Assembly (NCBI GenBank): GCA_030679995.1
Contig: JAUXSK010000019.1
Coordinates: forward strand, 1-52,496
DNA: 52,496 nt
Direction of reading: 5' to 3'
Origin: Candidatus Moraniibacteriota bacterium
GTDB taxonomy: Bacteria > Patescibacteriota > Minisyncoccia > Moranbacterales > UBA2206
Part shown: positions 34,160-49,349 of the stretch, piece by piece
How positions within the stretch are numbered: the stretch's first letter is position 1
Layout: each line of letters begins with the position of its first letter
Made by a program: the position numbers and the translations under genes
Notes under the pieces: model-generated
The model's input: the letters and a program-made list of their open reading frames with translations, nothing else
Databases searched by the model: none
Told to the model about the DNA's origin: nothing

Positions 34160-34285
34160 CAAAATACAAAGCATCGAATCCAGAATAAATTACAACAATC
34201 AAAATTTAAAATTCAAAACGATTTTGAATTTTGAAAATTGCAATTTCGAATTTATTTAGGATTTGTGATTTATAATTTGTAATTT
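34160..34285. repeat. Full copy of the AT-rich palindromic element
   Basis: Co-linear with 45273-45398; shares the 26 nt ATTTTGAATTTTGAAAATTGCAATTT. Confidence 0.85.
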
Positions 34286-34299
34286 CGCTTCATTATTTT

Positions 34300-35379
34300 A
34301 TGGGTACAGTGCATACCGAACAAAGGGTAAAAAATCTGATGCGGCTGGTGGCGCAACAGGGCGCTTCCGATTTGCATTTGGTGGTGGGGAGATATCCGAC
34401 GCTCAGGATCGACGGCCGGCTGTTTCCCGTGTCGCAAGACGCCGTGCTGACCCCGGCTGATACCCAGGCGATGAGCGATGTCATCATCGGTAACAACGAG
34501 GAAAACAAAAATAAATTCCTGGCGGACGGACAGATCGATTTGTCATATAACTTCGAAGACAAGGCGCGTTTCCGGGTGAATATATTTTTCCAGCAAGGCT
34601 ATGTAAGCGTGGCGATGCGTCTCATCCCGCGCGAGATCAGGAAATTGGACGAATTGAATATGCCGGAAGTGCTCTATGATTTCACTAAATTCACGCAAGG
34701 TCTGGTTCTCGTAGTCGGTCCGGTGGGGCACGGCAAGTCCACGACCTTGGCGGCGCTTATTAATGAGATAAATCATACGCAGGAGAAGCATATCGTGACT
34801 ATCGAGGATCCGATCGAATATATCTATGAGCAGGACAAATGCATCATCAACCAGCGGGAGGTTTTCCAAGATTCGAAATCATTCCAGACGGCTCTGAAAG
34901 CGGTTTTCCGCGAAGATGCCAATGTAGTTTTGGTCGGAGAGTTGCGTGATCTGGAAAGTATCAGTATCGCGATGACCGGCGCGGAAACGGGACACTTGAT
35001 TTTCGCCACTTTGCATACCAATGATTCCGCGCAGACCATCGACCGTATCATCGACGTTTTTCCGGCCCATCAGCAAAACCAGGTGCGGGCGCAATTGGCC
35101 AATACCCTGCTCGGCGTGATTTCGCAGAGATTGGTCCCGCGGGTAGATGGCGGTCGCGTGCCGGCGGTGGAGATAATGATAAAAAACCACGCTATTGAGA
35201 ATCTGATCCGGGAAGGCAAAGCCTATCAGATCGACAACAGCATCGAGACGAGCTCCGACCAGGGGATGGTCACGATGGACAAATCATTGTCGGAATTGAC
35301 CAGGCGGGGAATCATTTCCATCGACACAGCGCTGTCTTTCGCCAAGGAAAAAAATAATTTCCAAGCCCTGTTGCGTTAA
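34300..35379 (+). CDS. pilT: Pilus retraction ATPase PilT
   Basis: ASDLHL, RFRVN, GPVGHGKSTT, AETGHL, TLHT, AIENLIRE. Confidence 0.95.
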   Translation: MGTVHTEQRVKNLMRLVAQQGASDLHLVVGRYPTLRIDGRLFPVSQDAVLTPADTQAMSDVIIGNNEENKNKFLADGQIDLSYNFEDKARFRVNIFFQQGYVSVAMRLIPREIRKLDELNMPEVLYDFTKFTQGLVLVVGPVGHGKSTTLAALINEINHTQEKHIVTIEDPIEYIYEQDKCIINQREVFQDSKSFQTALKAVFREDANVVLVGELRDLESISIAMTGAETGHLIFATLHTNDSAQTIDRIIDVFPAHQQNQVRAQLANTLLGVISQRLVPRVDGGRVPAVEIMIKNHAIENLIREGKAYQIDNSIETSSDQGMVTMDKSLSELTRRGIISIDTALSFAKEKNNFQALLR

Positions 35380-35517
35380 TTCGATCCAGCCCTAGGATAT
35401 TTCGCTTTCTGGGTGTATAATAAAAACAAGAAAAAAACATAGTTTTAAAATAAACATAAAATGGAAACCTGGATCGGATGTCGCGCCTGAGGCGGAATCC
35501 GACAGGACAAAGAAAAA

Positions 35518-36729
35518 ATGAAATTTATTTTCAAAGCCAAGACCAAGGACGGGGAATTGAAAGAAGGAATCATCGACGCGGTGAGTAGCGAAGTGGCGGT
35601 TGAACTGTTGCAGAAAAACGCGCTCTTCCCGTTGTCGATCGCGACTGAGAAAGAAAAAAATTCTCTGGAAAAGACCTTTCTTCGATATTTCGACAAAGTC
35701 AATGACAAGGAATTGATGGTTTTCTTCCGCCAACTGTCGATTTTGATCGAGGCCAAGGTTCCGATCGTCGCTTCATTGACGGCCATCAAGGAGCAGATGG
35801 TCAACCGCTATTTCCAAAAGATAATCGGCGAAGTGGTGAATGATATCCAGGACGGCTTGCCGCTTTCGGACGCGTTGAAAAAACATAAACACATCTTTTC
35901 CAATCTGGCCATCAACATCGTCAAGGCCGGGGAAGTTTCGGGAAACCTGAAGAAGTCCGTGGAATATGTGGCCAATAATATCGAAAAAAATTATACGCTG
36001 ACCCAGCGCGTCAAGTCGGCGATGACCTATCCGGTCATCGTGATGATCGTGTTTTTCATAATCGCTTTCTTGGTTGTGGCTTTCATCATTCCCAAACTGA
36101 CGCTGATGATCAAGAGTATGGAAAACGTGGCGGTACCTTGGTATACCAGCGTGGTGATCGGAGTCAGTGATTTCATGGCGGCCTATTGGTGGGCGATCGC
36201 GATTATGATATTGGGAATCATCGGCAGTGTCATCTATTATATCAAGACCGAAGACGGATCTAGGGAATGGGATCGCATAAAGATCCGCTTGCCGATTTTC
36301 GGGACGATCTACCAATATCTGTACATCGCGCGTTTCGCGGACAACCTATCGGTGCTTTTGTCAGGTGGTATCCCGATTATTCAGGCTCTCAAAATCGTCA
36401 GTTCGGTCATTGGCAATACGGTTTATGAAGCGATTTTCCTGAAGGCGGCGGATGAAATCCGGATCGGCGGGGTGATGAGCGACGTTTTGCGCAAGTCTTC
36501 GCAGATTCCGCCAATCGTTTCACAGATGGTGAAGATTGGCGAGGAATCCGGGCAGATCGATCTGGTGTTGCAGCACGTGGCGAAGTTCTATGAGCAGGAA
36601 GCTTCAGATATGGCCAAAAACCTTTCTACTCTGATCGAGCCATTGTTGATGGTGTTGATCGGCGTGGCGGTGGCCTTCCTGGCTTTCTCAGTCATTATGC
36701 CGATTTATAATATCGCGGGACAATTTTAG
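35518..36729 (+). CDS. pilC: PilC/GspF platform protein, second copy
   Basis: FFRQLS, GEVSGNL, GEESGQ, LIEPLLM…MPIY. Confidence 0.95.
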   Translation: MKFIFKAKTKDGELKEGIIDAVSSEVAVELLQKNALFPLSIATEKEKNSLEKTFLRYFDKVNDKELMVFFRQLSILIEAKVPIVASLTAIKEQMVNRYFQKIIGEVVNDIQDGLPLSDALKKHKHIFSNLAINIVKAGEVSGNLKKSVEYVANNIEKNYTLTQRVKSAMTYPVIVMIVFFIIAFLVVAFIIPKLTLMIKSMENVAVPWYTSVVIGVSDFMAAYWWAIAIMILGIIGSVIYYIKTEDGSREWDRIKIRLPIFGTIYQYLYIARFADNLSVLLSGGIPIIQALKIVSSVIGNTVYEAIFLKAADEIRIGGVMSDVLRKSSQIPPIVSQMVKIGEESGQIDLVLQHVAKFYEQEASDMAKNLSTLIEPLLMVLIGVAVAFLAFSVIMPIYNIAGQF

Positions 36730-36750
36730 GGAATTTTAACGAGCAAAAAA

Positions 36751-37182
36751 ATGCAAACGAACGGGATGGCCGCATCTGCCGGCAAAAGAGGTTTCACGCT
36801 GATCGAACTTTTGATCGTAATCGCCATTATCGGAGTTTTGGCCTCGATCGTGCTGGTGGTAGCCAATGGTGCGAAAGAGCGGGCGATGCGCGCTTCGGCG
36901 CTGTCATCCGCTTCGAGTGTGATGGGCGAGCTTACTCTGTGCGCGGATGATGGAGGCGGGACGGACGGATCGGCCAGCGCGATCATCTGTACGGACGGCA
37001 CCGGAGGCAATGTCGCCTATGGCGGCCATAGCGCGGAGTGGCCGGATATCAGCCGGACGGGATGGATTTTTGTCGCCGCGGCGGAACTGCCTGTGTTGGA
37101 TACGACGACCTATTCCTACACCCTGACCAAAGCCGGACAAACCGATATCAATTGCAGTTTTAGCACGAAAGCCTGCCAATAG
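36751..37182 (+). CDS. Type IV pilin
   Basis: [19 protein letters not shown]; four Cys in the globular domain. Confidence 0.9.
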   Translation: MQTNGMAASAGKRGFTLIELLIVIAIIGVLASIVLVVANGAKERAMRASALSSASSVMGELTLCADDGGGTDGSASAIICTDGTGGNVAYGGHSAEWPDISRTGWIFVAAAELPVLDTTTYSYTLTKAGQTDINCSFSTKACQ

Positions 37183-37285
37183 GAAAAAGCCGCGTCAGCC
37201 GGCAGGAAAACAAAAAATTAAAAAGATATTTGGAAGTTTAAAGATAGATAAAAAATAAAAAAAACTAGAAAGGCAGGTGAAATAA

Positions 37286-48444: not shown

Positions 48445-48458
48445 TACTATGCGCTAGC

Positions 48459-48501
48459 GAGGCCTTTGGGATGTGTCTATCCCGAGGGTCTCCTTTTTTT
48501 T
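48459..48501 (+). terminator. Intrinsic terminator
   Basis: GAGGCCTTTGGGAT…ATCCCGAGGGTCTC followed by a T run. Confidence 0.7.
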
Positions 48502-48603
48502 GCCTTATCTGAGCCTTTGCCAAAATATCCAGAATCAGCTATACTATGATTGTGGGATAAGGAAAAGCGGGACACTGCGTTCCTGTTGCTTATTTCGGCC
48601 TAA

Positions 48604-48763
48604 AAGCCTGTTCAAAATCTCCGTTTTCTGCTGCAAATTCCAAATTTCGGCTGCAAAACTTTCAGATTTCGTCAGGTTATCCCAGGATAGCCCTCCTCAA
48701 TCTTCAAGTTTTTCGCTCGAAATTTGAAATTTTCGCGACGAAAGAGAGATTCTGAACAGGCTC
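48604..48763. mobile_element. 160 bp MITE
   Basis: 18 bp terminal inverted repeats (16/18); TAA on both flanks (48601-48603 and 48764-48766); internally palindromic; no transposase. Confidence 0.8.
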
Positions 48764-48778
48764 TAAAATAAAAAAACA

Positions 48779-49150
48779 ATGACATTCCGAGATTACATCT
48801 GGGGAATATGGTTGGTAACCCTCTTGTCGCTGGTAGCTTTTGTTTTCGTAGTCAGGTTCGTCGATCCAGACTCAACGGGCATCGCCGGCAAGCTTCTTTT
48901 TTATCTGAGCTTGTTTTTTGTCGGCAGCGGGATTTTCAATCTGGTTTTGTTGCGGTTGCGCAAAGGAACATTGAATGCGGAAACCGCCTCTTCCAATATC
49001 GGCCTGAGCTTTCGCCAGGGGATGCTGCTCGCGCTTTTTATGATCGGACTGCTGGTCCTGCAAAGTTTCCGCGTATTGGTCTGGTGGGATGGCTTATTAT
49101 TGTTCGGGGGGATATTTCTCATAGAGCTGTATTTCGTATCAAAAGAATAA
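48779..49150 (+). CDS. Hypothetical 4-TM membrane protein
   Basis: Four hydrophobic helices, DP motif, SFRQG. Confidence 0.8.
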   Translation: MTFRDYIWGIWLVTLLSLVAFVFVVRFVDPDSTGIAGKLLFYLSLFFVGSGIFNLVLLRLRKGTLNAETASSNIGLSFRQGMLLALFMIGLLVLQSFRVLVWWDGLLLFGGIFLIELYFVSKE

Positions 49151-49181
49151 GAAATTTAAATAATCATAAACTTATTAAATC

Positions 49182-49349
49182 TAAAATCCAAAATCTCAAA
49201 TTCCCTGCCTACATACCTAATGGTATGTAAACCGGCAGGCAGGCAAATAAATCGCAATGATCAAAATCTCAAATTCAAAACATCTTTTGAATTTTGGAAA
49301 TTGCAATTTTAAATTTATTTGTGATTTGTTATTTTGAATTTGTAATTTT
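49182..49349. repeat. Full copy of the AT-rich element with a nested 40 bp insertion
   Basis: Co-linear with 45273-45398 except for the extra 49204-49243. Confidence 0.88.

Follow-up and report, generated by a model that had tools for sequence, protein, structure and literature searches.

Intervening sequences (IVSs) in bacterial 23S rRNA genes are the closest described relatives of the element analysed here. In Coxiella, according to the part of the study available to us, the IVS has terminal inverted repeats that form a stem around an S23p open reading frame (ORF), tandem heptamers precede the ATG, and the whole is cut out by RNase III; the same part leaves the function of this IVS, and more generally the origin, mobility and function of rRNA IVSs and their S23p/PF05635 ORFs, unexplained (PMC4990558). 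In the candidate phyla radiation (CPR), many short non-intron inserts occupy IVS sites of the rRNA genes, which also contain some 23S_rRNA_IVP ORFs; in the part accessible to us, that survey is confined to rRNA genes (PMC11270868). IVSs and IVP ORFs inside rRNA genes are already known from the CPR and other bacteria, as are in-frame palindromic repeats in Rickettsia. Here we analyse a dispersed AT-rich palindrome of about 125 nt found in a 52,496-nt stretch of a Candidatus Moraniibacteriota genome (JAUXSK010000019.1, hereafter the window), which is contig C4 of a 993,898-bp assembly of 31 contigs (own genome, G000; 99.3% complete by marker genes). We think it probable that the copies are ORF-less members of a selfish hairpin family of the same kind as the 23S rRNA IVSs, spread beyond rRNA. 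Their identity as an IVS-type hairpin family with ORF-bearing and ORF-less forms outside rRNA is well supported.

Three full, co-linear, two-arm copies of what we call variant A lie on the plus strand of the window where the initial annotation had placed them, and both a profile hidden Markov model and a covariance model recover all three (Table 1). Copy 1 takes up the spacer that separates a response-regulator gene (33738-34148) from a pilT-like T2SSE ATPase gene (34300-35379), copy 2 fills the gap from gatC (44985-45266) to gatA (45400-46851), and copy 3, which contains a nested 40-nt G+C palindrome, lies immediately 5' of gyrB (49356-51464). Their best pairwise identity when aligned is 85% (45269 versus 49177). 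A profile built from these copies finds 34 loci genome-wide at E<1e-3, bearing out the claim of a dispersed palindromic family. In a comparison with shuffled DNA that had been set beforehand, the 52-position arm profile found 59 arms at E<1e-3 in the real genome and none in the same genome shuffled in 100-bp blocks (one shuffled match at E<1). Twenty-two arm pairs make up two-arm copies. Each copy is an imperfect palindrome of ~125 nt with two ~55-nt arms of 7-nt units; the arms share a consensus of AAATnnn on the left and nnnATTT on the right, plus one 4-nt unit (AAAT/ATTT), and the centre is itself a small palindrome.

The initial annotation had suggested that autonomous versions might carry a small ORF between the arms elsewhere in the genome, with a small helical-bundle protein among the candidate mobilisers, and such a version exists. 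At C21:42964-43424 a variant-A left arm runs directly into the ATG of a 120-aa ORF (C21:43003-43365), and the right arm follows the stop codon. The encoded protein is a 23S_rRNA_IVP/four-helix-bundle protein (PF05635, 1.1e-17; TIGR02436, 1.8e-23) whose nearest solved chain by sequence is 2rld (E 4.3e-17); as a mobiliser it is a candidate. The ORF-less copies have the ATG and first codons and are then joined to the region behind the stop codon, as is seen in copy 2, which retains the start of the lost internal ORF and is colinear, ATG included, with the 5' and 3' parts of the C21 form. Because their boundaries relative to the ORF-bearing form are shared, the ORF-less copies are best read as internal-deletion derivatives.

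The association of arms and gene extends to relatives. In a sample of 40 genomes of the order plus the own genome, PF05635 genes occur in 24 of 41 genomes, one to seven in each, with 28-58% identity to the C21 protein. Flanking inverted repeats reach at least the 99th percentile of 955 own-genome control genes at 19 of 26 PF05635 loci and lie above the 95th percentile at 22 of the 26. The arms vary by lineage with the design kept: heptamers end at the ATG and resume after the stop codon. The variant-A arm profile finds arms at just 2 of 30 PF05635 loci of relatives, since arms differ between lineages. Arm similarity correlates with protein identity (Mantel r 0.56, a value reached by none of 2000 permutations), which indicates that arms and gene travel as one unit. 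Two further variants, B and C, each have both ORF-less and ORF-bearing copies. A variant B profile, made solely from arms flanking PF05635 genes in six other genomes, gives 18 arm matches in the own genome and none in its shuffled counterpart; variants A and B jointly make up 0.51% of the genome (5,081 bp). Variant C is the gatC-gatA gap sequence of a same-genus relative (G002), with 12 matches in that genome, 21 each in G001, G007 and G008 and two in the own genome, and it also flanks a PF05635 gene in G001.

The link to rRNA comes from the relatives. The three-copy profile matches within the 23S genes of 8 of 25 relatives for which these genes were fetched (G035, G019, G028, G012, G029, G008, G017 and G040; E 1e-14 to 4e-4). 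In G029, cmscan places inserts in the hairpin loop at ~139-143 of the model, taken as the helix-9 loop, and at position 583. Mapped on an insert-free relative, the recurring sites are ~130/154 (2 genomes), ~593/607 (3 genomes), ~1286/1305 (3 genomes) and ~2877/2902 (2 genomes), plus three single sites. We take these to include helices 9, 25 and 45, by the known IVS sites and the structure line of the cmscan alignment; just the first two were read from the alignment. By tblastn, no PF05635 ORF was detected within any 23S gene of these 25 genomes. The G029 23S gene also holds a group I intron (RF00028, 54.1 bits; L195:4727-4924) beside three hairpin inserts.

We propose that the complete form consists of an A-rich heptamer arm, a ~120-aa four-helix-bundle gene (PF05635) and an inverted T-rich arm, and that the 125-bp copies are internal-deletion derivatives multiplied in a MITE-like manner, that is, like miniature inverted-repeat transposable elements. 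In these Patescibacteria, a CPR lineage, landing sites extend beyond rRNA loops to operon spacers, tRNA spacers and coding sequence. Three features may make such insertions tolerable: translation starts from A/T-rich leaders independently of a Shine-Dalgarno (SD) sequence; the hairpin lies wholly between a stop and a start codon; and coding DNA usually keeps the A-rich arm alone, its 7-nt period giving a hydrophilic K/S/Q/I/N heptad peptide in any frame. The transcribed hairpin may be cut by RNase III as with rRNA IVSs, and the encoded protein may take part in the spread by a route without a transposase. We further hypothesize, as something possible rather than probable, that the heptamer arms and a pentameric Avd-like protein are together an autonomous mobile element whose mechanism would belong to a new class, using no transposase, integrase or reverse transcriptase. 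Here the protein would recognise its own heptamer arms, as the co-divergence of arms and protein suggests, and promote copying or exchange of hairpins at transcribed sites.

A rival account of these small, multi-copy palindromes with long inverted arms is a classical MITE, a deletion derivative of an insertion sequence moved in trans by a DDE or HUH transposase, with the four-helix-bundle gene as a passenger. Five loci out of 34 lie no further than 40 nt from the end of a contig (C14:38-152, C7:2-100, C2:7-130, C8:17-138 and C30:3-93), which is typical of repeats and expected if they break assemblies. The end copies of C14 and C7 look alike in alignment and may be one locus divided by the assembler. 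A search of the genome found no RVT_1 reverse transcriptase, Cas12f/TnpB zinc ribbon, DDE_3 or DDE_Tnp_1 domain, other transposase families not having been searched. There is one Y1/HUH gene (Y1_Tnp; C21:111977-112672, L187:1243-1938), which adjoins a tRNA and matches PF01797 at 29.5 bits and, weakly, the tyrosine transposases (RAYTs) associated with repetitive extragenic palindromic (REP) sequences. However, this gene is flanked by, and contains, a different palindrome, a 19-nt G+C-rich sequence of the GTCGAGGACCGTCCTCGAC type that occurs at 8 loci when up to 3 mismatches are allowed. The pair looks like a small REP/RAYT system, and the gene's having its own palindrome argues against its serving the AT-rich family. 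Furthermore, the gene between the arms is PF05635 at all 26 loci, which were themselves picked by PF05635. In agreement with the initial annotation, no crisp terminal repeats or target duplications are resolved at the copies or at a filled and empty pair of pilT sites, which are too divergent for a target duplication to be read. A classical MITE is therefore, in our view, quite unlikely.

The placement of the copies raises a different explanation, that they are host-serving cis-regulatory modules of operons (translation leaders, sites of RNA processing or stability, or protein-binding arrays) at fixed boundaries. The 22 two-arm copies fill gaps between neighbouring genes, mostly with 0-25 nt to each flank, and the upstream stop codon sometimes falls within the first bases of the element. 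Of 17 copies with a clear strand and co-directional flanking genes, 14 point with the genes (p 0.013). This could be because the ORF-bearing form needs transcription with the host operon, or could reflect selection on the asymmetric inner part. An orientation set by replication, as in IS200/IS605, was set aside, since just 11 of 18 copies follow GC skew (p 0.48). Spacing is narrow too: 21 genes begin no more than 30 nt from a T-rich arm, and among them 10 nt is the commonest interval between profile end and start codon. Several relatives have these gene boundaries filled as well, and one two-arm copy (C14:31285-31403) stands directly 5' of the gene for RNase III (C14:31458-31856), the enzyme that would cut the hairpin. 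In E. coli, rnc is autoregulated via a hairpin in its own leader.

Translation starts near the copies proved ordinary for this genome. The distances to the next ATG given in the initial annotation are right (14 nt for pilT, 1 nt for gatA and 6 nt for gyrB), as is the lack of an SD at these ATGs: none of the 21 genes that start behind a T-rich arm has an SD core. But this is not special to the copies, because the SD is missing genome-wide; the core (GGAG/GAGG/AGGA at -18 to -4) occurs in 87 of 871 genes (10%) versus 8.8% of random positions. G frequency is at most 0.20 at every position from -30 to -1 of the leaders, where A and T dominate, and T occupies -1 in 65% of 685 ATG genes. We also considered a promoter, Bacteroidetes-like or sigma-70, in the T-rich arm and rejected it: promoter-like sites number 3 against 1.5 ± 1.2 in shuffles, and none leads from the right arm into gatA.

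The hairpins themselves fold well one at a time. All six single copies or strands that were folded form the long hairpin foreseen by the initial annotation (-26.6 to -33.5 kcal/mol, z -3.6 to -7.3). Covariation, which was to have been checked together with the folds, did not appear. With a 37-pair stem set by hand from the single-sequence folds and applied to 22 copies, 84.5% of cells pair, compared with 84.3% in shuffled data, and 211 of the 500 shuffles reach the observed level; RNAalifold found no consensus structure in a MAFFT alignment of the 22 copies. Selective upkeep of the hairpin therefore has no support, and palindromy is a property of the consensus without support for upkeep by compensatory change. 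The absence of covariation and of an excess of promoter-like sites argues against a module that serves the host. So do orthologous sites that are empty with their genes intact (pilT in G002, gatC-gatA in G017), copies in rRNA loops and inside proteins, and a patchy distribution. The covariance model R1 matches 31 of the 41 genomes of the order sample, own included (E ≤ 1e-3, both strands counted; 0-55 matches each), and in a phylum-wide draw of 151 it matches 49 (E ≤ 1e-5), with a patchy spread over families, all scanned genomes being within the phylum. We consider the cis-regulatory explanation unlikely.

Arms also lie inside coding sequence, beyond what the initial annotation had listed. The NAD-dependent DNA ligase LigA of the window (730 aa, 42683-44875) contains three segments that E. 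coli LigA (2owo) lacks, and each is an in-frame A-rich arm (Table 1). The peptide at site 1 is missing from the E. coli protein, and the partial ligA of a same-genus relative (G001) is 22 aligned residues shorter at site 2. A short arm-like stretch in recG (DSKFKIPNSKL) was likewise absent from the earlier list. Genome-wide, 11 in-frame arm matches lie in 9 ORFs, affecting LigA (three times), RecG, PheS, PrmC, a HypF-like protein, a U32 peptidase, UvrC, a Mur ligase and one familyless ORF. The sense strand is the A-rich one in 11 of 11 (p 0.001). Since three 7-nt units make 21 nt, a similar 7-residue K/S/Q/I/N repeat results in any frame, barring stops. In lspA a complete two-arm copy, also in frame, separates two Peptidase_A8 stretches.

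Table 1 Element copies, arms and nested repeat in the window.
Feature	Position	Strand	Evidence
Full two-arm copy 1, variant A	34153..34288	+	covariance model E 2.2e-16; folds at -26.6 kcal/mol, z -3.6
Full two-arm copy 2, variant A	45266..45401	+	covariance model E 6.6e-18
Full two-arm copy 3, variant A	49175..49351	+	covariance model E 5.4e-17
Single arm, 66-nt clpC-comF spacer	26697..26743	-	arm profile E 4.2e-5
Two-arm copy, variant B (AATTTTA-type units)	3295..3410	+	arms E 0.0018 and 0.00019; 0 matches in shuffled genome
Single arm, variant B	41497..41546	+	E 0.00022
A-rich arm in frame in ligA, site 1, 18-residue peptide	43000..43049	+	E 4.3e-6
A-rich arm in frame in ligA, site 2, 16-residue peptide	43443..43487	+	E 1.2e-4
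A-rich arm in frame in ligA, site 3, 16-residue peptide	44396..44441	+	E 5.1e-6
Short arm-like stretch in frame in recG	20506..20535	-	weak match, E 0.0043
Nested G+C-rich palindrome, CCTGCC...GGCAGGCAGG, 40 nt	49204..49243	+	inside copy 3

Comparison with relatives shows turnover. The nearest relatives by gyrB are CPR/Patescibacteria metagenome-assembled genomes (MAGs), at 82% for the closest MAG and 77% for a Candidatus Moranbacteria MAG. The pilT site is empty in G002, which has a 24-bp spacer between flanks 90% identical. G017 has no insert at the gatC-gatA site, its two genes abutting, and in G002, G007 and G014 the site holds AT-rich palindromes of other variants, ~117-146 bp long. The gyrB site has a different ~100-bp insert in G001 and G002, and none in the 82% gyrB relative. 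At the position of the C21 ORF-bearing form, G001 has, between the same neighbours, a PF05635 gene 50% identical with variant-B arms. Length varies at the three ligA sites in all five aligned relatives. The question of whether sites are fixed across relatives has a divided answer: gatC-gatA, gyrB and ligA sites are occupied in relatives, by different variants, whereas pilT in G002 and gatC-gatA in G017 are empty. Orthologous sites show gain or loss plus replacement.

Turnover of this kind could also be produced without mobility, if AT-rich heptamer tracts grew by slippage and were homogenised by gene conversion or by uptake of foreign DNA with recombination. The ligA length change is stepwise (22 residues between G000 and G001), close relatives hold different variants at the same sites, and competence genes (comF, pilT) are present in the lineage. 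In the accessible part of the Coxiella study, the number of IVS heptamers varies as well (PMC4990558). But slippage cannot yield one 125-bp non-periodic order (arm, ATG remnant, centre, arm) at at least 22 unlinked loci, which also have the asymmetric inner part in common, nor deletion boundaries that are shared relative to an ORF-bearing form, and it leaves the same sequence in rRNA loops of other families unexplained. This explanation is, we judge, very improbable.

Several observations weigh against a mobile, IVS-type family carried by the PF05635 gene. At home just one of two PF05635 genes is arm-flanked, the second (C3:5337-5711) having no arms. Among the 41 genomes the gene is present in 15 of 22 with at least five matches versus 9 of 19 with fewer (Fisher p 0.22, in a test that treats related genomes as independent), and in G017, with 49 matches, no PF05635 gene was found. 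Recent movement has no sign in copy identities, and the copies are old: the closest pair genome-wide is 87% identical and the median is 71%. The lack of covariation described above belongs here too. The element's ends merge into TTAAA/TTTAA-like flanks, its exact limits could not be defined, and among the 11 coding arms 5 match weakly (E 0.004-0.024). Because shared sites hold different variants, replacement or gene conversion fits as well as transposition. Groundwater metagenome runs contain DNA of this genome, and no RNA run was found to hold the sequence; in contigs of four such DNA runs none skips an element, a ~93%-identical strain in the reads retains the pilT copy, and backward joints in the read contigs are cross-joins between copies. 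The 23S gene is missing from the own assembly, so the rRNA link rests on relatives. Finally, as far as the available part of the Coxiella study goes, the S23p protein is probably not produced and known members of the PF05635 family have no demonstrated DNA movement (PMC4990558).

Returning to the window, of the other places that the initial annotation had put in the family, the arm in the clpC-comF gap is matched by the arm profile and reads as an A-rich arm in the sense of both minus-strand genes. The proposed diverged relative at 3301-3411 is a two-arm variant B copy by the variant B profile (arms 3295-3342 and 3368-3410), filling the spacer between ORFs 1555-3300 and 3418-4638, and the one at 41501-41582 reduces to a single variant-B arm by the same profile. 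The remaining two were not upheld: searching each stretch alone gave a best E of 0.45 at 39721-39760 and of 0.22 between the tRNAs at 47631-47905. Small AT-rich hairpins that match no profile do lie beside tRNA-Met and tRNA-Asp (47631-47695 and 47860-47905), and on visual inspection they look like the arms that enclose a PF05635 gene between two tRNAs in G030 (L164). An Rfam gathering scan of the window returned 11 tRNAs and nothing else. The ligA-gatC spacer (44876-44984) holds another palindromic element with different units (CGAATCTACGAAC / GTTCGTAGATTCG) and a design like that of the AT-rich family, also found at C18:34688-34790 and near C2:29170-29260. Scored for inverted repeats, 44 of 377 spacers of 80-260 bp surpass the 99th percentile of a shuffled set: variant A accounts for 17, variant B for 6 and other sequences for 21, the last including further AT-rich variants plus ordinary terminators.

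The G+C palindrome nested in copy 3 is a separate short repeat family, outside the consensus of the AT-rich family. It occupies the same position in two other intergenic AT-rich copies (C12, C25) and is present in translated form in own-genome uvrC and G007 ligA. Within the uvrC insert the G+C module stands between two arms, the arrangement also seen where intergenic copies carry it. The repeat comes as a form of ~20 nt, of the CCTGCCTACCGGCAGGCAGG type, plus the 40-nt form. Its 12-nt half gives 28 strand-matches with up to one mismatch, some of them chance matches in ORFs. Sites are 49204-49243 and 11138-11149 in the window and C2:29230, C6:765, C11:2781, C12:12769, C14:42508, C18:187, C22:4472, C24:6878 and C25:5756.

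Within a literature search that left most subscription journals outside its coverage, nothing came to light that describes IVS-type elements from operon spacers or from within proteins, or that reports variants with matching ORF-bearing and ORF-less forms. What this genome offers is such paired forms, the one autonomous-like and the other ORF-less, in the operon spacers and essential proteins of a 1-Mb genome, with matches in a third of the phylum-wide sample. The family would provide a natural system for the role of an Avd-like protein outside diversity-generating retroelements and bears on the processing and SD-free translation of CPR operon transcripts. It may account for recurrent low-complexity K/S/Q/I/N insertions in CPR housekeeping proteins and for contig breaks in CPR assemblies. 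If the arms and protein do form a new class of element, the rRNA IVSs known since ~1990 would be no more than the part so far noticed of a genome-wide element, and one could then test where they come from and what their ORF does.

In the light of known systems, the family is most like the 23S IVSs, which have an inverted-repeat stem around a PF05635 gene (the Coxiella, Leptospira, Brucella and Xanthomonas type) or around nothing (the Salmonella type). In the parts of two sources available to us, these have tandem heptamers directly before the ATG and a length of ~100-450 nt (PMC4990558, PMC11270868). Homologous copies of the present family occupy recurrent 23S loops in relatives. The arms described here share an inverted consensus with a 37-pair stem, the optional S23p/PF05635 ORF is present at C21, and the three window copies are ORF-less like short IVSs. 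In contrast to the 23S IVSs, the window copies lie outside rRNA, in mRNA spacers, a tRNA-rich region and coding DNA, and the family, known here from DNA alone, numbers dozens per genome with several co-existing variants. As in MITEs, the copies are small, non-coding and multi-copy with terminal inverted repeats, whereas the parent form carries a PF05635 gene rather than a transposase, other transposase families not having been searched.

Other dispersed palindromes are alike in part. REPs resemble the family as dispersed extragenic palindromes, and a RAYT-like gene is present in the genome, but REPs are short and G+C-rich, and that gene is flanked by the 19-nt palindrome and not by AT-rich arms. 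ERIC (enterobacterial repetitive intergenic consensus) and Correia elements carry TA target duplications. Such duplications were not found in the AT-rich family, and those elements lack a known protein-coding parent of the PF05635 type. By the accessible part of one source, they are imperfect palindromes of ~125-150 bp that are co-transcribed between operon genes, as the present copies may be, and RNase III cleaves the Correia transcripts at their inverted repeats (PMC10969869). In the same part, Rickettsia palindromic elements are ~100-150 bp long in a reduced genome and stand in frame in unrelated housekeeping genes, to which they add a peptide (PMC10969869). The likeness to these is by description; here coding DNA holds mostly single arms (11 versus one whole copy), the units are of 7 nt and there is an ORF-bearing parent. 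TIGR-Tas arrays were set aside by description, the copies being single dispersed hairpins and not tandem; no search for a Tas protein was made. The protein links the family to Avd of the diversity-generating retroelements, a PF05635-like four-helix bundle in the part of the source at hand (PMC10053308). Unlike Avd systems, this genome yielded no reverse transcriptase and no template/variable repeat pair was seen; its Avd-like gene sits between heptamer arms.

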